This document shows, in pieces, positions 5,580 to 33,580 of a stretch of DNA of 64,000 nucleotides. The notes below the pieces were generated by a model. The model saw only the letters and a program-made list of their open reading frames with translations. It did not search any database and was not told where the DNA came from. A program made the translations under genes and the position numbers. Numbering within the stretch: position 1 is the first letter of the stretch; each line of letters starts with the position of its first letter. Source of the DNA: Nitrospirae bacterium JdFR-86 (lineage in GTDB: Bacteria > Nitrospirota > Thermodesulfovibrionia > Thermodesulfovibrionales > JdFR-86); contig MTOV01000015.1 of assembly GCA_002011815.1 (NCBI GenBank), positions 1,405-65,404 of the forward strand, read 5' to 3'.

Positions 5580-6116
5580 ATGCAGGATATATCACTACAT
5601 ATTCTTGATATAGCGGAAAACTCTATAGATGCAGGTGCTACAAGAATAGAGATTAAGATAAAAGAAGATTTAAAAAATGACAGGTTTATTTTAATAATAA
5701 AGGATAACGGAAAAGGGATGGAGGTCGGAAAAAAGACAAAAGACCCATATTTTACCTGCAAGACAGGCAAGAAGTTTGGACTGGGCATTCCTTTTCTTGC
5801 ACAGGCAGCTGAGGAGTGTAACGGACGGTTCTCCCTTAGTTCTGAAAAAGGCAAGGGCACAACCGTGGTTGCCGAGTTTCAGCGAAGCCACATAGACCTT
5901 AAGCCGCTTGGCGACATGGGTGCAACAATGACAACACTGATATGCGGACATCCTGAAATAGATTATCTGTTTCTTTATGAAAAAAACGGGCAGAGTTTCA
6001 GTTTTGACACAAAGGAACTAAAGCAGGAGCTGGACGGTGTGCCGGTAAATCTACCGGAGGTGCTTAAGTTTATAAAAGAAGAAATCAATGAAGGACTGAG
6101 GAGGATAAAGGGATGA
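5580..6116 (+). CDS. GHKL-family ATP-binding protein (histidine-kinase-like ATPase, no DHp domain)
   Basis: HILDIAENSIDAG (N-box), DNGKGM (G1) and GLGIPFL...KGKGTTV (G2). Same type as the small ATPases found in Hyd/Hnd operons. Confidence 0.65.
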   Translation: MQDISLHILDIAENSIDAGATRIEIKIKEDLKNDRFILIIKDNGKGMEVGKKTKDPYFTCKTGKKFGLGIPFLAQAAEECNGRFSLSSEKGKGTTVVAEFQRSHIDLKPLGDMGATMTTLICGHPEIDYLFLYEKNGQSFSFDTKELKQELDGVPVNLPEVLKFIKEEINEGLRRIKG

Positions 6117-6991
6117 AAGGTAATGTCCTTGTTGTTGATGATGAACAGATAGTACTTACAAGTTGCGAGAGGATTCTTGAGCCAGAGGGGTATGATGTAG
6201 ATACTGCCATCTCTGCAAAAGCTGCTCTCGCAATGCTTCAGGAAAAACCCTATGACCTTGTTATCACAGACATCAAGATGCCTGAGATGGACGGTCTGGA
6301 GTTTATCAGGCAGATAAGGGCGAAAGACCCTGATATGAATGTCGTTCTGATTACAGGTTATCCCTCGCAGGAAAGCATTAAAGAAGCCCTGAGCTTAAGA
6401 ATAATAGATTATCTGCCCAAACCGTTTTCTCCTGCGCTTCTTACCGAGGTAACCCACAAGGCAGTGGAGTTCAAAAAGAAGGGTGTTTCTCCAGAGCCTG
6501 CAGTCGAGGACTATACAGAGGAAGTAGCAGCAAAGCTCGATGAGATTATAAATCGTTACAAGGACAAGCCCGGCAGTCTTATACCTGTGCTTCAGGAGGC
6601 GCAGGAACTCGTTGGTTATCTGCCGCCGGTTGTTCAAAGGCACATTGCACGGGGACTTAACCTTTCTGTAAGTGAAGTTCATGGTGTGGTTTCATTCTAT
6701 TCGTTCTTTACGATGAAGCCTAAGGGCAAGCACAACATCAGGGTGTGTCTTGGAACTGCGTGCTATGTTAAGAGGGCAGAGGAAATACTCCAGAAGCTCA
6801 AGGAGATACTTAAGATAGATATAGGTGAGGTTACGCCTGACAGGACGTTTTCGCTTGAGAGTGTCCGTTGTCTTGGAGCTTGTGGTCTTGCGCCTGTGGT
6901 CGTTGTGGACAAGGACACCTATGGCGCTGTAAATCCAGTAAAGACTGCCGAGATCCTCGAAAACTACAACGGCAAGAAGAAGGAGGGTTAA
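6113..6991 (+). CDS. receiver domain fused to a NuoE/HndA-type [2Fe-2S] thioredoxin-like ferredoxin
   Basis: N-terminal REC (VVDDE, VITDIKMPEMDG, LPKPF). C-terminal NuoE motifs (SLIPVLQEAQ, CLGTAC, CLGACGLAP). Confidence 0.8.
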   Translation: MKGNVLVVDDEQIVLTSCERILEPEGYDVDTAISAKAALAMLQEKPYDLVITDIKMPEMDGLEFIRQIRAKDPDMNVVLITGYPSQESIKEALSLRIIDYLPKPFSPALLTEVTHKAVEFKKKGVSPEPAVEDYTEEVAAKLDEIINRYKDKPGSLIPVLQEAQELVGYLPPVVQRHIARGLNLSVSEVHGVVSFYSFFTMKPKGKHNIRVCLGTACYVKRAEEILQKLKEILKIDIGEVTPDRTFSLESVRCLGACGLAPVVVVDKDTYGAVNPVKTAEILENYNGKKKEG

Positions 6992-7375
6992 ATGCCAAGG
7001 CTGACAGTAGATGATTTAAAGAAGATAAAGGAACAATATAAGTCTACTCTTACTCTCAGGGAAGGCGGTTACAGGGCAAAGATAACCGTGCACATGGGCA
7101 CCTGCGGAATTGCAGCAGGTGCAAGGGATGTAATGGATGCACTGCTTGATGAAATGGCAGCAAGTGATACAAAGGATGTTATCGTTACCACCTCAGGATG
7201 TGCAGGGCTTTGCAGCCGTGAGCCGATGGCTACTGTCGAGATAATCAACGAAGCACCGGTTAAGTATTGTTATCTCGACCCTGAGAAAATCAAAAAGATA
7301 TTTAAAGAGCATGTACAGGGAGGCAAGGTAGTCGAGGAGTATGCACTGGTTGTGGGAAGCGAAACGTCTTATTAA
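6992..7375 (+). CDS. HndB-like small [2Fe-2S] ferredoxin
   Basis: About 127 aa with MGTCGIAAGA...SGCAGLCSREP, the thioredoxin-like 2Fe-2S pattern. Confidence 0.7.
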   Translation: MPRLTVDDLKKIKEQYKSTLTLREGGYRAKITVHMGTCGIAAGARDVMDALLDEMAASDTKDVIVTTSGCAGLCSREPMATVEIINEAPVKYCYLDPEKIKKIFKEHVQGGKVVEEYALVVGSETSY

Positions 7376-7416: not shown

Positions 7417-9258
7417 ATGGAGAAATACCGTGCAAATTTGATGGTATGCGGCGGCACAGGCTGTATAGCAGGCGGGGGACTTAAGATAAAGGATGCACTG
7501 GTTGAGGAGATTAAAAAGAGAGGGCTGGAAAACGAAGTCAATGTAGTGCTTACCGGCTGTAACGGCTTTTGCGCAGAAGGACCTATAATGACCGTTTATC
7601 CCGACGGCGTATTCTACGAAAAGCTCAAGGTGGAGGACATCCCCCTGCTCGTTGAAGAGCACCTGCTTAAAGGCAGGCCTGTCGAGAAACTGATGTATAA
7701 AGAGCCGGAGAAGAAGCATGCAGTGCCTGTGATGAAGGACATACCGTTCTTCAGCCTTCAGGTTTTAAGGGCATTGAGAAACAAGGGTATGATAGACCCT
7801 GAAAAGATAGAGGAGTATATAGCAAGGGACGGCTATCAGGCAGCAGCAAAGGCATTGACCGAGATGACGCCTGAGGAGATAATCAGCACGGTAAAGGCGT
7901 CAGGGCTTCGTGGAAGAGGCGGTGCAGGCTTCCTTACCGGACTTAAATGGGAGTTCTGTTCAAAGGTTACTGCTGACCAGAAATACATACTGTGTAACGG
8001 AGACGAGGGAGACCCTGGTGCGTTCATGGACAGAAGCATAATGGAGGCAGACCCGCATGTGGTTCTTGAAGGCATGATAATAGCGGCAAAAGCCATTGGC
8101 GCATCAAAAGGCTATATATATGTGAGGGCGGAGTATCCGCTTGCAGTAAGAAGGCTTCAGCTTGCCATAGACCAGGCAAAGGAATACGGACTGCTCGGTG
8201 AAGACATCCTGGGCACAGGGTTTAACTTGGACATAGAGATATATCAGGGTGCAGGCGCTTTCGTCTGCGGAGAGGAGACCGCTCTTATGCGTTCCCTCGA
8301 AGGAAAGCGTGGAATGCCGATACCAAGACCTCCGTTCCCTGTGCATAAAGGACTCTGGGCAAAGCCTTCGGTGCTTAACAATGTCGAGACGTTTGCAAAC
8401 ATCCCGCCGATAATCCTCCACGGTGCGGACTGGTACAGAAGCCTCGGCACGGAAAAGTCCACAGGCACAAAGGTCTTTGCGCTTACAGGTGCGGTAAACA
8501 ACATCGGTCTTATAGAAGTGCCGATGGGTATTCCTCTTAGAAAGATAATCTTTGACATAGGCGGTGGAATAAAGAAAGGCAGGAAGTTTAAGGCAGTTCA
8601 GCTTGGAGGTCCTTCAGGCGGATGTATTCCTGAAGAGTTGCTCGACACACCGGTTACATATGAAGACATAGTCAAGACCGGTGCGATTGTCGGCTCAGGC
8701 GGAATGGTTGTTATGGATGACCTGAACTGCATGGTCTCTGTTGCCAAGTTCTTCCTTGAGTTTACAGCTGATGAGTCCTGCGGGAAGTGCCCGCCGTGCA
8801 GAATCGGCACGAGGGTGATGCTCGATATGCTTACGGATATTACAGAGGGACGGGGCAAGCCCGGTGATGTAGAGCTTCTTCAGGACTTGGCACAGGACAT
8901 TATAAACACATCTCTTTGCGGTCTCGGGCAGACCGCACCGAACCCTGTGCTTACCACTATCAAGTATTTTGCCGATGAGTATGAATCTCATATAAAGGAC
9001 GGCTGGTGCAAGGCAGGGGTTTGCAGAGACCTTGTCACCTTCTACATAGATGCAGAGACGTGTAAAGGCTGTGGTGCATGCATGAGGGTTTGTCCTGCAG
9101 GAGCGATTACAGGCGAGAAGAAGAAACCGCATCACATCAATCAGGAGCTTTGCATAAAGTGTCGTTCATGTTTTGAAAGATGCAAGTTTGACTCTGTAAA
9201 GACAGGTCCAGCGAGCATGCGAGAAGAACTCTTGAAGAAACAGCCTGTTGAGGCATAG
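7417..9258 (+). CDS. NuoF/HndC-type NAD(P)H-binding flavoprotein subunit with extra Fe-S domains
   Basis: N-terminal 2Fe-2S-like domain (CGGTGC...CNGFC). GRGGAGF and GDEGDPGAF (FMN/NADH) motifs. ESCGKCPPCR N3 cluster. C-terminal 2x[4Fe-4S] (CKGCGAC..C, CIKCRSC..C). Confidence 0.9.
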   Translation: MEKYRANLMVCGGTGCIAGGGLKIKDALVEEIKKRGLENEVNVVLTGCNGFCAEGPIMTVYPDGVFYEKLKVEDIPLLVEEHLLKGRPVEKLMYKEPEKKHAVPVMKDIPFFSLQVLRALRNKGMIDPEKIEEYIARDGYQAAAKALTEMTPEEIISTVKASGLRGRGGAGFLTGLKWEFCSKVTADQKYILCNGDEGDPGAFMDRSIMEADPHVVLEGMIIAAKAIGASKGYIYVRAEYPLAVRRLQLAIDQAKEYGLLGEDILGTGFNLDIEIYQGAGAFVCGEETALMRSLEGKRGMPIPRPPFPVHKGLWAKPSVLNNVETFANIPPIILHGADWYRSLGTEKSTGTKVFALTGAVNNIGLIEVPMGIPLRKIIFDIGGGIKKGRKFKAVQLGGPSGGCIPEELLDTPVTYEDIVKTGAIVGSGGMVVMDDLNCMVSVAKFFLEFTADESCGKCPPCRIGTRVMLDMLTDITEGRGKPGDVELLQDLAQDIINTSLCGLGQTAPNPVLTTIKYFADEYESHIKDGWCKAGVCRDLVTFYIDAETCKGCGACMRVCPAGAITGEKKKPHHINQELCIKCRSCFERCKFDSVKTGPASMREELLKKQPVEA

Positions 9259-9287
9259 AAAATTTCATGGATTTAAGGAGTCCGGAT

Positions 9288-11774
9288 ATGATAGAGCTTA
9301 CGATTAACGGAAAGAACATTTCAGTAGAACCTAACACCACAATTTTGCAGGCGGCTTTGGCTAACGGGATATACATTCCGCATCTGTGCTGGGACAGGAG
9401 GCTTGCGCCTTACGGTGGATGCAGGCTTTGCCTTGTTGAAGTAGAAGGGCAGAGGAAGCTTCTTGCAGCGTGTTCGACTCCTGCGGAAAACGGCATGGTC
9501 GTGCAGACAGAGACGCCAAAACTGCACAAGGCAAGAAGAACAGTGCTTGAGCTTTTGCTCATACACCATCCTCTTGACTGCCCTGTATGTGACAAGGCAG
9601 GCGAGTGCGAGCTTCAGGACCTCGCCTTCAAATACGGACCGTCTGAAAGCAGGTTTAAAGGAGAGAGAAAGCACGAGCCTGAGAACCTTGCCGCACCGCT
9701 TGTCGAACGAAACCCCAACAGGTGCATACTATGCGGCAAGTGCGTAAGGGTCTGTAGTGACCATCAGGGTGTTGGCGCAATAAACCTCATAGGCAGAGGG
9801 TTTACGACAAAGGTCAGTCCTGCCTTTGAGGAAACGCTTGACTGCGAGTTCTGCGGTCAGTGCATAGACGCCTGCCCGGTAGGCGCTCTCGGAAGCAAGC
9901 CTTACAGATTCCGCTCAAGAGTGTGGTTTATGGAAGAGCAGGAGACAGTCTGTCCATACTGTGGTTGCGGATGCACGCTTACGCTCGGTATCAGAGAAGG
10001 CAGGATAATACGCTCAAGAGGGCAGGACGGCGTTGGTATAAGCAAAGGCGATCTCTGCGGCAAAGGCAGGTTCGGCTTTGACTACCTGTATTCAGAGCAC
10101 AGGCTGTCCACCCCGCTTATAAGAAAAGGAGAGGAACTTGAGCCTGCTACATGGGAAGAAGCTCTCTTTTTCATAAGTGAGGAAATCAAGAGGATTAAGG
10201 ATAAATACGGGGCAGAGGCAATAGGTGCTATAGGTTCTCAAAGATGCACGGTTGAAGACAACTACATGCTTCAGAAGTTCATGCGGGAAGTGGTTGGTTC
10301 AAACAACATAGACTCTGCGGCAAGATTCGGCTATGCAAAGATTCAGGAGGCTGTTAAAAAGGCATTCGGGATTAATGCCCTGCCGATAGATTTCGACTCG
10401 CCTTTAAAGGTAGATGTGATACTTGTTGTAGAGTCTGATATAACGTCAACGCATCCTGTGTTCGGACTTAATATTCTCATGGCGAAGAGGCAGGAGGGTG
10501 CTACTGTCATAGTTGCTGACCCGAAATTTACAAAGCTTTCAAGGCACAGCTCGAAATGGCTCAGGATGAAGCCGGGCACTTCTATTGCCCTTATGAACGG
10601 CATAATGAAGGTAATGCTTGATGAAGGGCTTGTCAGCGAAGATGCGACAAAGATTCCTAATTTCGATTCACTTAAAGAGACTTTAAACGACTATACGCCT
10701 GAGAAAGTGGCTGAGATTACAGGTGTGAGTGCCTCTGATATAGTGGATACGGCACGTAAGTTCGCACAGGCTAAAAACAGACTGCTTTGTCTTACAATCG
10801 GTGATTCTGAAAACACAAAGGGCTTGAATACTGCGCTGGCTGCAGCCAATCTTGTGCTTCTTTCAGGCTCAGGACCTGAGGCTTTGCAGATGCCTGCAGA
10901 GTTTTCAAACACGCTGGGGCTTTATGAAGCAGGCGTCAGACCGGACTGCACTGCCGCACATAAGCCTGTGGAGAACAAAGGGCTTGACATCTACGGCATG
11001 CTTTATGATGAAAACTCTCCTATAAAGGCGCTTTACATAATGGGAGAGAATCCGGTTGTAACATTCCCGCGTGCAAATTTTGTCGAGGGAGTGCTTAAAG
11101 GGCTTGATTTTCTCGTTGTTCAGGACATAATGCTTACGGACACTGCAAAACTTGCTGATGTTGTGCTTCCGGCTTCAAGCTGGTCGGAAAAAGAAGGCAC
11201 ATTCGTAGGCACAACAGGCATCCCGCAGAGGGTCGTGAAGTGTGTCCCTGAGACCGGACTTTCAATCCCTGACTGGATGATACTCAGGAACCTTGCAAGA
11301 ACCATGCAGAAGGACATCGGGGCAAAGGACATCGAAACCCTTAAGGCAGAGATAGCACAGAATATTGATTTTAAGTTTGAGATTTCAGAATTCGAGCCTT
11401 CGTTCAACCCTGTAGTTTACAGTGGCGGTGAGTCCCCTGACAGTGAGTATCCGCTTTGTATGGTTACAGGCATTCTTATGCAGCATTCAGGCAGTCTTAC
11501 AATACTGTCCAAGAGCCTGGGCAGTGTTGTCTCGGATGCCTATTTGCAGATAAACGATGCTGATGCCAGAAAGTTCAGCGTTAAGGATGAAGAATATGTC
11601 AGGGTTATATCAAGAAGGGGAGAGGTGTATCTCAAGGCGAAAGTCACCGATGAGGTGCCGGAGGGAATGCTCTTTGTGCCTGCTCATTTCCCGCATGCAA
11701 GGGTCAATGCGCTTACATACCCTCCTTCTAACGGTGACTCGCCGGTTGTTGCTGTGAAGATAGAACCAGCTTAA
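9288..11774 (+). CDS. NuoG/FdhA-like Fe-S and molybdopterin-oxidoreductase-fold subunit lacking the FDH catalytic Cys/Sec-His
   Basis: The ATG at 9288 lies 7 nt after AAGGAG. N-terminal 2Fe-2S (CRLC), HPLDCPVCDKAGEC, two 4Fe-4S motifs and MopB CPYCGCGC...CGKG. Where FDH has ARVC/UHGP, this sequence reads AARFGYAK (10305-10340). Confidence 0.8.
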   Translation: MIELTINGKNISVEPNTTILQAALANGIYIPHLCWDRRLAPYGGCRLCLVEVEGQRKLLAACSTPAENGMVVQTETPKLHKARRTVLELLLIHHPLDCPVCDKAGECELQDLAFKYGPSESRFKGERKHEPENLAAPLVERNPNRCILCGKCVRVCSDHQGVGAINLIGRGFTTKVSPAFEETLDCEFCGQCIDACPVGALGSKPYRFRSRVWFMEEQETVCPYCGCGCTLTLGIREGRIIRSRGQDGVGISKGDLCGKGRFGFDYLYSEHRLSTPLIRKGEELEPATWEEALFFISEEIKRIKDKYGAEAIGAIGSQRCTVEDNYMLQKFMREVVGSNNIDSAARFGYAKIQEAVKKAFGINALPIDFDSPLKVDVILVVESDITSTHPVFGLNILMAKRQEGATVIVADPKFTKLSRHSSKWLRMKPGTSIALMNGIMKVMLDEGLVSEDATKIPNFDSLKETLNDYTPEKVAEITGVSASDIVDTARKFAQAKNRLLCLTIGDSENTKGLNTALAAANLVLLSGSGPEALQMPAEFSNTLGLYEAGVRPDCTAAHKPVENKGLDIYGMLYDENSPIKALYIMGENPVVTFPRANFVEGVLKGLDFLVVQDIMLTDTAKLADVVLPASSWSEKEGTFVGTTGIPQRVVKCVPETGLSIPDWMILRNLARTMQKDIGAKDIETLKAEIAQNIDFKFEISEFEPSFNPVVYSGGESPDSEYPLCMVTGILMQHSGSLTILSKSLGSVVSDAYLQINDADARKFSVKDEEYVRVISRRGEVYLKAKVTDEVPEGMLFVPAHFPHARVNALTYPPSNGDSPVVAVKIEPA

Positions 11775-29008: not shown

Positions 29009-30229
29009 GTGGCAATGTTTCCGGAGAGAAAGGGGGTCGTTGACCCCTTGACTGTGAAAAGGGTAGTTGTTACAGGTATCGGGGCAGTGACTCCTCTGGG
29101 AAATTCCTTTATAGATTCATGGGATGCGGCAAAGAAAAGTATTTCAGGCATTCGTCCGGTGACAAGGTTTGATGTATCAGACATCCCGTGGAAAGTTGCA
29201 GGCGAGCTTAAAGGTTTTTCTCCTGAGGAATACATTCCCCGAAAGGATTTAAGGCGTCTTGACCTGTTTGTGCATTATGCATTTGCTGCCGCATGGATGG
29301 CTTTTAAGGATGCGGCTTTGGATAAAAAACATCTAAACTCTGCCGGTGTCATTATCGGCTCAAGCAGGGGCGGAATAAGCACGATAGAAGAGACCCTGAG
29401 GAAAAGACCCACTGCCTATGCCATGTCAGCCACGACGATAAGCATGGCTGCATCGTATATAGCCAAGAGGCTTGGCATAAAAGGGCATTGTCTGGGCATC
29501 TCGAATGCGTGCTCTTCAGGTGCAAGTGCAATAGGCGAGGCGTTCAGGTTAATCAAACACGGTCAGGCAGAGGTTGTGCTTGCAGGCGGAACTGAAGCCC
29601 CTGTGTGCAGGCTTTGCATTGAAGGCTATGGTGCATCCGGAGCACTCTCTAAAAAAGGCATCAGCATGCCTTTTGACAAAAAAAGAGACGGCTTTGTGCT
29701 CTCAGAAGGAGCTTCAGTGCTCGTTCTTGAGGATTATGAATCAGCAATAAAGCGCGGCGCAAGGCTTTACGGTGAGATTTTAGGCTACGGCAACACATCC
29801 GATGCCTTTCATCAGACAGTGCCGGACAAAAAAGGCCAGGCAAAGGCTATAAAAGCAGCACTTGAAGAAGCAGGCATTAAGCCGGATGATGTAGATTTCA
29901 TCAACGCTCATGCCACGTCCACTCCGATAGGTGATATAACAGAGGCAGAGGCTATAGAACTCGTGTTCGGAAAAACCACTATTCCTGTAAGTTCGGTCAA
30001 ATCCATGACAGGGCATATGCTCGGCGCATCCGGTGCATTCGAGGCAGGCATGACTCTGATGACAATAAACGAAGGGATAATCCCGCCGACTGTTAATCTA
30101 AAAGAGCCTGAAGGCGGTCTTAATTATGTAAGACAGACCAGAAAGGCTCGGGTAAGGGTTGCCGTGTCGAATTCTTTCGGCTTTGGCGGGGTGAACTCAG
30201 TGCTGGTCTTTGCGTCTGTTTCAGATTAA
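29009..30229 (+). CDS. beta-ketoacyl-ACP synthase II-like condensing enzyme
   Basis: Cys-His-His triad contexts are present: NACSSGASAIG, NAHATSTPIGD and SMTGHMLGASG. Confidence 0.85.
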   Translation: MAMFPERKGVVDPLTVKRVVVTGIGAVTPLGNSFIDSWDAAKKSISGIRPVTRFDVSDIPWKVAGELKGFSPEEYIPRKDLRRLDLFVHYAFAAAWMAFKDAALDKKHLNSAGVIIGSSRGGISTIEETLRKRPTAYAMSATTISMAASYIAKRLGIKGHCLGISNACSSGASAIGEAFRLIKHGQAEVVLAGGTEAPVCRLCIEGYGASGALSKKGISMPFDKKRDGFVLSEGASVLVLEDYESAIKRGARLYGEILGYGNTSDAFHQTVPDKKGQAKAIKAALEEAGIKPDDVDFINAHATSTPIGDITEAEAIELVFGKTTIPVSSVKSMTGHMLGASGAFEAGMTLMTINEGIIPPTVNLKEPEGGLNYVRQTRKARVRVAVSNSFGFGGVNSVLVFASVSD

Positions 30230-31329
30230 AGTGCTTTTTCGTATATCCTGTATTTTTTATAGAGTTTTCCGCCTATCATTTCCACGAGTCTTTGAACAGG
30301 CAGGTTGTCTTCGAGTATCCATGAAAACTCCACTCGTCTGTAACCGCCTTTCTTTACTCCTTTGAAGCCTTCTCTGAAGAGCAGGGCATCCACGCCTTTT
30401 AACCTGTAGTCCTTTTTTACGCCTAAAAGAAGCATTCTCAGGTCTTTGATTTTTCTTGAGTAATAAACGGCTTTGAGAATCGTCACGGGATTAACCCTGC
30501 CGTTCATGTGTTTTAAGACATAATTAAAGTCCGGAATAAGTCCCATAAAGCCTACTGGTTTTCCTTCTGCCTCGGCAATGAGCGTAAGTTCCGGCACTGC
30601 AATCTCCTTGAGTCTTTGTCCGAGAAAATCGAGCTCTTCATCAGTAAGCGGGATGAACCCCCAGTTTTTCTCCCATGCAGAGTTGTACACTTCTTTAAAG
30701 GCTTCAAGCTCGGATATGAAATTTTTCTTGTTGACTGCTCTTACTTTTATTTTTCTTTTCTCTGCGATGGATGCCACCTTGAGTATCTTTTCCGGCAGCT
30801 TGTCTTCTATGTTGTAGATGTATGCAAAAAGGTCTTTGGATTTTTTCATCCCGTAATCTGTCATAAGGTCGTTGTAATAAGGCGGGTTATAAGGTGTCAT
30901 GAGCATTGGTGGTTCGTTGAAGCCTTCTATGAGGAATCCGCATTCCTCGTTCGTTGAAAAATTCATCGGACCTCTCAGTGTTTCCATTCCTTGATTTTTA
31001 AGTTCCTCTGCAACCCTGTTTAATAGAAGCTTTGAGACATCAGGGTCTTCTGTGCACTCAAAGAAGCCGAAGAAGCCAGCCTTTTCTTTATGAAATTCGA
31101 TGTGTCTTCTGTTTAGAATTGATACGATTCTTCCTGTGCAGACTCCGTTTTTCCTGGCGAGGAACAGTTTTACCTCTGCATGTTTGAAAAACGGGTTTGA
31201 GGGTGAGAATTGTTTACGCATTTCCCGTATAAGAGGTGGGACATAGAAGCGGTTACTGGAATAAATCCTGAAGGGTAGTTTTATAAAGTCATCGAGGTCT
31301 TTTTCGGATTTAACCTCAGCTATTTCCAT
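30226..31329 (-). CDS. GNAT-fold acyltransferase-like protein (candidate bacterial ceramide synthase-type N-acyltransferase)
   Basis: About 367 aa, last gene of the epimerase/Spt-like operon. AGFFGFFE motif and C-terminal acyl-CoA N-acyltransferase-like segment. The functional call rests on context. Confidence 0.45.
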   Translation of the reverse strand: MEIAEVKSEKDLDDFIKLPFRIYSSNRFYVPPLIREMRKQFSPSNPFFKHAEVKLFLARKNGVCTGRIVSILNRRHIEFHKEKAGFFGFFECTEDPDVSKLLLNRVAEELKNQGMETLRGPMNFSTNEECGFLIEGFNEPPMLMTPYNPPYYNDLMTDYGMKKSKDLFAYIYNIEDKLPEKILKVASIAEKRKIKVRAVNKKNFISELEAFKEVYNSAWEKNWGFIPLTDEELDFLGQRLKEIAVPELTLIAEAEGKPVGFMGLIPDFNYVLKHMNGRVNPVTILKAVYYSRKIKDLRMLLLGVKKDYRLKGVDALLFREGFKGVKKGGYRRVEFSWILEDNLPVQRLVEMIGGKLYKKYRIYEKAL

Positions 31330-31333
31330 TGGG

Positions 31334-32563
31334 TTACTGGATAAGCCCCAGAGCCTTTCCTACTTTTTCAAAGGCAATGAGGACGATTTCGAGGTGTTCG
31401 TCTGTATGTGTAGCCATGTAGCTTGTTCTGATGAGTGCCTTGCCGTTGGGCACTGCTGGAGGCACAGCCACGTTTGCGAACACGCCTTCGTCGTGAAGCA
31501 TCATTGCCATTTTGAAGGCTGTCTCGTTGTCTCCGACGATTATGGGTATTATGGGTGTTTCACTTGCTCCGACTTCAAACCCGAGGGATTTAAACCCGTT
31601 AAGCATCTTTCTGGTGTTGTGCCAGAGCCTTTCGATTCTTTCAGGCTCGCTTTCGATAATATCAATAGCTGCGCTTACTGCGGCTATGCTTGCAGGCGGC
31701 GGACTTGCGCTGAATATCAACGAGCGTGCGAAATGCTTTACGTAATGTATTACTTCCTCTGAGCCTGCTATAAACCCTCCTATGGATGCAAGCGACTTGC
31801 TGTATGTTCCCATTATAATGTCCACTTCGTTTTCAAGTCCGAAGTGTTCGGCAGTGCCTCTGCCGGTCTTCCCCAGAACCCCGATGCCGTGTGCATCATC
31901 CACCATGACTCTTGCATCGTATTTCTTCGCCAGTTTTATTATCTCAGGAAGGTTTGCTATGTCGCCTTCCATGCTGAAGACTCCGTCAACGACTATGAGT
32001 TTTCCCTTGCCTTCGTTTTCCTCGAGTATGCGTTCGAGGTCAGCCATGTCGTTGTGCCTGAACTTTCTGACTTCTGCATATGAAAGCCGGCAGCCGTCTA
32101 TGATGCTTGCATGGTCCATTTTATCGATGATTACAACATCGTCTTTTCCTGCAAGTGCAGAGATGGTGCCGAGGTTGACCTGAAAGCCGGTGGAAAATAC
32201 AAGCGCTGCTTCTTTTCTCATAAATCTTGCAAGTTTTTCCTCAAGTTTGACATGTATGTCAAGTGTTCCGTTCAGAAACCGTGAGCCTGCACAACCAGAG
32301 CCGTATTTTCTGACTGCCTCTATGGCTGCTTCCTTGACCTTTGGATGGTTTGTAAGTCCTAAGTAATTGTTCGAGCCGACCATTATCATCCTTCTGCCGT
32401 TTATGACAACTTCAGGGTCTTGTGCGCTCTCTATCATCCTGAAGTATGGATAGAGCCCTACGGACATGAGTTCTTTTGCCCTGTTGAATTTATAGCACTT
32501 GTCGAATATGTCAGTTGATTTCTTTACAGCCATTGATGAATTCTGTACCAGTTTGCCGTCCAT
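31334..32563 (-). CDS. alpha-oxoamine synthase family PLP enzyme, serine palmitoyltransferase-like
   Basis: The PLP lysine context [13 protein letters not shown] resembles Spt GTFSKS more than KBL or AONS. DDAHG motif present. Start is uncertain (32563 or 32533). Confidence 0.75.
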
Positions 32564-33489
32564 TTAATCCCCTCGCTCATCTTCACCCTTGGTGAAAACC
32601 CAAGTTTCTTGTTTGCCTTTGAGGAATCGCATATCCATTTTGGATAACTCAATTCCTTCACCTTATCTTTGTTGATTATACTACTTTGTTTACTAAGACT
32701 ACTACTGATATGTGCAATAAGAGGGAATATGCGCTGTGGAATTCTCACACGGATGGGTTTTGTGCCGACTGCCTCTGATATGACAGAGGCTATGTCTTCG
32801 TTCGTGTAAATGTTTTCGTCGGAGAGGAAGAACACTCCGCCTTCTGCGTTTTCCGACTCAGCAGCCATAATGATCCCTCTGACGAGGTCATCCACATAAA
32901 GTAATGAGTAATAGCATTTGCCCCAGTACGGGAAAATCCCTTTTTTAAGTATCCTGTAGAACACGTAGAGGTCTTTGTCTCTTGGTCCGTAGACAGCAGG
33001 TGGTCTTATTATAGTGACTGGTATTTTGTCTTTGTATTTCATTACGGCATATTCGCCTTCGAGTTTGCTTTTTCCATAGCTGGAAACAGGTCTTGGAGGT
33101 GTATTTTCGTTAACAGGGTTTCCGTTGCTGCTTGGTCCTACCGCAGCAAGACTGCTGAGATAGAGGAATCTTTTAAGATTGGGATTTTTGGCTAAGGCAG
33201 CTTCAAGGAGGTTTTCTGTACCTTTTACATTTACAGCGAAGAAGTCTTCGTCCTTAGGTGCTTTTGTCAGTCCGGCGATGTGGAATATAGTATCGACGTC
33301 CTTGACTGCATCAAGCAAGGATTCTTTGTTTCGGCAGTCTCCATATATAAGTGTTACATCGAGGCTTTCTATCCACTTTAGTGTGGATTCTTTCCTTATG
33401 AGACAGGCAACTCTGTAACCTTTCTTGAGGAGTTCTTCTACGAGGTGGCTTCCGATGAAGCCTGTGGCACCTGTCACAAGGGCTTTCAT
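32524..33489 (-). CDS. NAD-dependent epimerase/dehydratase-family (extended SDR) reductase
   Basis: [12 protein letters not shown] Rossmann motif and YGKSK catalytic YxxxK. Confidence 0.8.
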
Positions 33490-33580
33490 AAGCTAAAAAT
33501 ATTTTGAGCCATCATTTAAGATTAGTCAAGTTAAAAACTTAAAAGATTGAGAATTGTTTAGAAAGGCGGTTAGGGCGGTG

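Follow-up and report, generated by a model that had tools for sequence, protein, structure and literature searches.

A Thermodesulfovibrionales operon that very likely directs de novo ceramide synthesis

The ceramide pathway of Caulobacter crescentus is described as consisting of a serine palmitoyltransferase (Spt, CC_1162), a bacterial ceramide synthase (bCerS, CC_1154) and a reductase (CerR, CC_1164) (Olea-Ozuna 2021; Stankeviciute 2022; Uchendu 2024, PMC11087976). Here we describe a cerR-spt-bcerS operon of the uncultured Nitrospirae bacterium JdFR-86, located in a stretch of 64,000 nucleotides (positions 1,405 to 65,404 of contig MTOV01000015.1, assembly GCA_002011815.1), which we call the window. 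The operon very likely serves the de novo synthesis of ceramide (dihydroceramide). We take Caulobacter CC_1154 to be CCNA_01212 of strain NA1000.

Several related systems have been described. In alpha-, beta- and gamma-Proteobacteria, an acyl carrier protein (ACP; AcpR) and an acyl-ACP synthetase (AasR) are stated always to accompany spt (PMC9386255). In Bacteroidota, the three ceramide genes are usually unclustered (PMC11334938). Ding et al. (2024, PMC11334938) described Spt-like "clade B" operons of uncultured anaerobes in which, as in the window, an Spt homologue is co-localized with CerR and bCerS. They took the presence of Spt, CerR and bCerS on one scaffold as the criterion for sphingolipid potential and found it in metagenome-assembled genomes of 38 phyla; Nitrospirota are named in neither the main text nor the supplements of that paper. 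For Thermodesulfovibrio, a genetic potential for sphingolipids is stated, with a citation of Stankeviciute et al. 2022, in the passage concerned of Rempfert et al. (PMC10667739).

We found that the window codes for the same three enzyme families in one compact unit. The genome is 100% complete (2.1 Mb in 25 contigs). A sequence-only reading of the window had pointed to three tightly packed minus-strand genes, and all of their coordinates were reproduced exactly from the list of open reading frames (Table 1). Pfam and NCBIfam confirmed the families it had named: an extended short-chain dehydrogenase/reductase (SDR), an alpha-oxoamine synthase (AOS) and a GNAT acyltransferase. There is an overlap of 40 nt between the SDR and AOS frames and a spacing of 4 nt between the AOS and GNAT genes.

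By sequence comparison, the AOS belongs to the Spt clade and is predicted to condense L-serine with a long-chain acyl thioester. Its top NCBIfam model was NF047600 (SerpalmtaseCFB; 591 bits), and the next family scored 125 bits lower. The best relative among solved structures was Spt of Sphingobacterium multivorum (3A2B, 8GUH; 460 bits), a protein from a different phylum. Scores for other chains in the PDB were 358 bits for a bifunctional BioF/Kbl enzyme (8S1Y/7POA), 313 for Sphingomonas Spt and 288 for Kbl. In a residue-level alignment, the window AOS and the Sphingobacterium enzyme have in common the motif around the pyridoxal 5'-phosphate (PLP) lysine, GT(F/Y)SKSLAS, and a V-x-PAVP loop, and both are without an equivalent of R378 of Sphingomonas Spt. 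The equivalent of R390 is present in the AOS, and residues H151, D222 and H225 align with H159, D231 and H234 of the Sphingomonas enzyme.

The sequence-only reading had judged the PLP-lysine context, GTYSKS, to fit Spt better than Kbl or BioF, and this judgment stands. The motif spans residues 252-257, and K256 is aligned to K265, which is the PLP lysine in Sphingomonas Spt. Among the 84 AOS sequences of a tree, which did not include rows for 5-aminolevulinate synthase or cysteate acyltransferase, the window AOS fell into a clade of 73 rows with a Shimodaira-Hasegawa-like approximate likelihood ratio test (SH-aLRT) support of 99. Also in this clade were all 70 AOS proteins linked to a GNAT gene, together with the Spt proteins of Sphingomonas and of the yghO cluster in E. 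coli. Kbl and BioF of E. coli lay outside, as did the BioF of the window genome. This last protein is a second AOS, encoded on contig C9; its score exceeds the equivalog cut-off for bioF (454 > 426 bits), so biotin synthesis is covered separately.

Judged by homology, the GNAT protein is a bCerS of the CC_1154/YghO family. In pairwise alignments it matched E. coli YghO end to end over 367 aa (32% identity, E 4e-75), and it matched the acyltransferase of a Sphingomonas parapaucimobilis cluster, also end to end, with 34% identity (E 3e-70). The orthologues of this acyltransferase (Aca) listed in PMC9386255 are CC_1154, yghO ECD_02850, Swit_3908 and DRN02_007910 (S. paucimobilis), and the N-acyltransferase is needed for dihydroceramide synthesis. 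This full-length similarity to published bCerS orthologues bears out the earlier assignment. Using tblastn against annotated plasmid and chromid records, we found full-length homologues in S. parapaucimobilis, Roseomonas and E. coli. The homologue in Sphingomonas lies in a cluster with genes for an NAD(P)H-binding protein, an ACP, Spt, LptF/LptG paralogues, a desaturase and an N-acetyltransferase. The homologue in E. coli PN43 is yghO, and its neighbors code for an acyl-AMP ligase, an epimerase-family SDR, an ACP, an AOS and LptFG. These two clusters, like that around the Roseomonas homologue, are of the canonical sphingolipid type.

The family is large (8267 clusters at 50% identity), and in its tree the proteobacterial references branch from within the family and do not lie apart from its other members. 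The window GNAT matched none of the NCBIfam family models and had no sequence relative in the PDB. An AlphaFold (AF2) model, calculated from an alignment without the sequences from annotated plasmid records, had two GNAT domains with a predicted local distance difference test (pLDDT) score of 94. As modeled, the protein resembles glucosamine N-acetyltransferase and MshD, both of which are small-molecule amine N-acyltransferases.

Other members and loci of the bCerS family showed variations on this plan. Two proteins, P0180 and P0189, have an N-terminal PilZ domain, which would give a ceramide synthase a module for binding c-di-GMP. P0125 is a protein of 784 aa with two bCerS-like modules in tandem. 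One locus (L115, G110:C73:13000-32000) has two full-length bcerS genes in tandem downstream of spt, at 8178-9278 and 10172-11272, each 63-64% identical to that of the window; they could have two acyl-chain specificities. In Roseomonas mucosa (L121, NZ_CP025188.1), a bCerS homologue at 5968-7125 lies amid LptF/G paralogues, a sterol desaturase and an NTP transferase. Many Roseomonas records label the bCerS homologue "dATP pyrophosphohydrolase", probably a wrong annotation of a sphingolipid cluster that has spread from record to record.

We classify the SDR, from its sequence, as CerR-like (an NDUFA9-like extended SDR). It matches the Pfam Epimerase family (1.9e-42). Both the GxxGxxG motif (GATGFIG, residues 7-13) and the YxxxK motif (Y138GKSK142) are intact and are shared with a Sphingomonas protein to which the SDR was aligned. 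This NAD(P)H-binding protein occupies the CerR position in a CerR-ACP-Spt cluster and is 29% identical over the full length (E 8e-45). With the epimerase-family protein encoded in the yghO cluster of E. coli, the identity is 27% (E 2e-38). When the Sphingomonas protein was used as the query in the window genome, the SDR came out on top with 116 bits and the next SDR scored 86, a margin of 30 bits at modest identity. The orthologues of this reductase (Epi) given in PMC9386255 include CC_1164 and ECD_02852, and the reductase is needed for dihydroceramide synthesis.

Some of our results weigh against the assignment of the operon to ceramide synthesis. The AOS score of 591 bits is below the equivalog cut-off of NF047600 (640 bits), and the AOS is also under the cut-offs of two other Spt equivalog models, NF047599 and NF047603; all three are lineage-specific Spt models. 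Membership in the bCerS and CerR families rests on published orthologues of the Caulobacter proteins, in E. coli and Sphingomonas. The best curated NCBIfam model for the SDR is HpnA-like, and the SDR is far under its cut-off. For CerR of Caulobacter, a periplasmic and peripherally membrane-bound location has been reported (Uchendu 2024, PMC11087976), whereas the window SDR begins straight with the Rossmann motif and appears to have no room for an N-terminal signal peptide. In the literature that we searched, there was no culture-based lipidomics for Thermodesulfovibrionia.

The low AOS score relative to the curated cut-offs also bears on which lipid is made. The same enzymes might produce a different N-acyl amino lipid, either a 1-deoxy or glycine-derived analogue of ceramide or a capnine-type sulfonolipid made from cysteate. 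The capnine pathway is similar in outline, with an AOS reaction (by cysteate-C-fatty acyltransferase; 28EH/7U7H) followed by keto-reduction and N-acylation. Amino-acid specificity is not readable with certainty from sequence, and work in the Black Sea ascribed (1-deoxy)ceramide backbones to the same pathway (PMC11334938). However, the window AOS is far closer to Spt (460 bits) than to the solved cysteate-C-fatty acyltransferases (268 and 258 bits). It also lies in one clade with the Sphingomonas and E. coli Spt proteins and has the active-site loop and catalytic residues of S. multivorum Spt. We consider a different N-acyl amino lipid improbable, and the sequence-only reading's capnine alternative is disfavored.

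The conservation of gene order provides further support for ceramide synthesis. Starting from a 12-row alignment, we searched for loci with a gene for a GNAT relative and examined 80 from named assemblies. In approximately 55 of the 80, representing more than 15 phyla, an Spt-type AOS gene directly adjoins the GNAT gene, with the GNAT gene downstream, and in most of these an SDR relative is adjacent as well. The phyla include Nitrospirota, Zixibacteria, Gemmatimonadota, Ignavibacteriota, Bacteroidota, Acidobacteriota, Chloroflexota, Planctomycetota, Elusimicrobiota, Bdellovibrionota, Myxococcota and others. Two proteins of ~780 aa (P0191 and P0203) are natural fusions of AOS and bCerS. Within the order of the window genome, the loci that we read keep both the SDR-AOS-GNAT order and the same overlap of the SDR and AOS frames. 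The gene order is also found (L111, L113) in a family with genomes of 3-5 Mb, which holds loci labeled Nitrospiraceae and in which most sampled genomes have the GNAT gene. Because gene order and overlap recur across the order and beyond, the arrangement is not due to chance. In one genus of the order, with complete genomes of ~2 Mb (G040, G055; L108, L109, L116, L118), spt and bcerS are 13-17 kb apart.

Among 201 sampled Nitrospirota genomes, 90 had the GNAT gene, including 40 of the 42 from the order of the window genome. Three genomes that are 99-100% complete (G134, G138 and G022) had neither the GNAT gene nor an Spt-type AOS gene, and they retained only an AOS of the BioF level. Two of these, G134 and G138 (both 99% complete), represent the only two other genera of the family to which the window genome belongs. 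In G134 (L132, G134:C66:6000-16174), the genes for ResB, CcsB, a histidine kinase, NtrC and a REC protein are followed, after ~400 bp, by the FabF-like gene. This is the order in the window minus htpX and the three ceramide genes. More distant families (G166) carry the operon at the same site, so it looks as if the operon was lost in G134. Spt and GNAT thus appear to have been lost together in the nearest relatives.

These results bear on whether the three genes might be unrelated housekeeping genes, for a Kbl- or BioF-type synthase, a sugar epimerase and an acetyltransferase, that merely happen to be adjacent. The Pfam names are indeed generic, and the HpnA-like model is the top NCBIfam match of the SDR. 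Such a set of genes would nevertheless be at odds with the position of the AOS in the tree, the separate bioF, the synteny and gene fusions across phyla, and the joint loss. We regard chance adjacency of this kind as extremely improbable; synteny, co-loss and the tree effectively refute it. Homology, tree and synteny instead support the earlier proposal that the three genes represent the families of bacterial ceramide synthesis, Spt, bCerS and CerR.

The operon is thus correctly annotated as a pathway that was already known, here in a further lineage. The sequence-only reading had suggested that sphingolipid synthesis would be noteworthy here, a suggestion that does not hold given the near-universal presence of the GNAT gene in the order and the potential already cited for Thermodesulfovibrio (PMC10667739). 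Knowledge of the pathway itself is unchanged. One more uncultured genus of Thermodesulfovibrionales very likely has a complete Spt-bCerS-CerR route, and this helps trace environmental ceramides (in hot springs, serpentinite fluids and anoxic sediments) to the organisms that are their source. There are also useful side leads: the clean natural loss of the operon in sister genera, the independence of a neighboring FabF-like gene and a co-occurring PAP2_3 candidate (both below).

By analogy with the described systems, we infer the substrates, the order of the steps and the final lipid. Spt would condense L-serine with a long-chain acyl thioester to 3-ketosphinganine. The tandem-GNAT bCerS would then N-acylate the amino group of 3-ketosphinganine, and the extended-SDR CerR would use NAD(P)H to reduce the 3-keto group. 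The placing of acylation before reduction is borrowed from the model for Caulobacter, in which this order is reported to be favored on the grounds of protein localization (PMC11087976). The acyl donor would most likely be acyl-CoA, used directly, because there are no AcpR/AasR-type genes and because the AOS is close to the Sphingobacterium enzyme.

The locus resembles that of Caulobacter in its three families, and its proteins are full-length homologues of the published E. coli and Sphingomonas orthologues. There are also differences. The window genes form one compact operon, whereas the Caulobacter genes are scattered over a larger cluster. No dedicated gene for an ACP or acyl-ACP synthetase was found beside spt in the operon and its flanks, where gaps are at most 91 nt. 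In contrast, Caulobacter has AcpR and AasR, and the Sphingomonas and E. coli clusters have genes for an ACP and an acyl-ACP synthetase. LptFG paralogues and CpgD-type genes, as in Caulobacter, are not found near the window operon.

The operon is flanked by htpX and by a gene for a FabF-like ketoacyl-ACP synthase II (KAS II). The KAS II gene was confirmed to converge on the operon, as the sequence-only reading had noted; the stop regions of the GNAT and KAS II genes overlap by 4 nt. A dedicated role in the pathway could be imagined for this KAS II, which would then provide a special acyl chain to be built into the long-chain base or the amide. Besides the housekeeping FabF encoded elsewhere in the genome (696 bits), it represents a second KAS II (452 bits); it passes the PRK07314 subfamily cut-off and its Cys-His-His triad is intact. 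Moreover, several families of the order have it as a convergent neighbor of bcerS (L018, L019, L104, L105, L106, L110, L115).

Other observations speak against a dedicated KAS II. G134 and G138, which belong to the same family and have no operon, retain orthologues (61-65% identity), and in G134 the gene is still in the same place. In the set of 80 loci, KAS II is adjacent to bcerS in none of those from other phyla, and it is transcribed convergently. The genes resB, ccsB and htpX and those for the histidine kinase and NtrC are equally conserved neighbors, so inherited synteny explains the adjacency. We therefore read the position of KAS II, which is kept without the operon and is not adjacent in other phyla, as inherited synteny. 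A dedicated role is quite unlikely, and we rejected KAS II as a member of the pathway because its orthologues outlive the operon. The convergent KAS II named in the sequence-only reading is not tied to the operon.

Table 1. Features of the cerR-spt-bcerS locus and an unlinked candidate gene. Positions are those of the window unless a contig is given.
Feature	Product	Position	Strand	Basis and remarks
cerR-like (first operon gene)	Extended-SDR reductase, 321 aa (P0003)	32524-33489	-	ORF list, Pfam, NCBIfam
spt	Alpha-oxoamine synthase (AOS), 409 aa (P0002)	31334-32563	-	ORF list, Pfam, NCBIfam
bcerS	Tandem-GNAT N-acyltransferase, 367 aa (P0001)	30226-31329	-	ORF list, Pfam (GNAT), homology
FabF-like gene	KAS II, 406 aa	29009-30229	+	ORF list; convergent to bcerS
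Promoter-like site (tentative)	TTGACT-17-CAAAAT	33501-33529	-	Consensus scan only; inside the 91-nt htpX/SDR gap
PAP2_3/PAP2_C gene	Membrane protein, 300 aa	G000:C4:129454-130353 (L134:856-1758)		Domain matches; outside the window

Two other candidates next to the operon were considered and rejected. The htpX gene is present elsewhere in genomes without the operon and was dismissed as a member of the pathway. A sigma-54 promoter in the 91-nt leader of the SDR gene was also rejected; the sole GG...GC pair there is spaced 15 nt, not 10. The consensus scan that gave the promoter-like site in Table 1 found 11 sites where 7.6 were expected, making it weak evidence.

Outside the window, we found a candidate for a later step of the pathway, a PAP2_3/PAP2_C membrane protein encoded on contig C4 and unlinked to the operon. 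Its only named relative was the model for Bacteroides phosphoinositol dihydroceramide synthase, with a score (25 bits) far under the cut-off. Of the 201 Nitrospirota genomes, 75 had both PAP2_3 and bcerS, 15 had bcerS only, one had PAP2_3 only and 110 had neither; the genomes are relatives and not independent, so these counts do not amount to a statistical test. The single genome with PAP2_3 only is 85% complete. In the family whose genomes measure 3-5 Mb, many members (among them G042 and G095) have PAP2_3 beside bcerS, and in G012 it adjoins spt. PAP2_3 is a reasonable candidate for a ceramide head-group transferase. We give about equal weight to the notion that this uncharacterized, Aur1/SMS-like protein turns the ceramide made by the operon into a phosphosphingolipid and to the notion that it does not. 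If it does, Nitrospirota would have a distinct family of bacterial ceramide head-group transferases.

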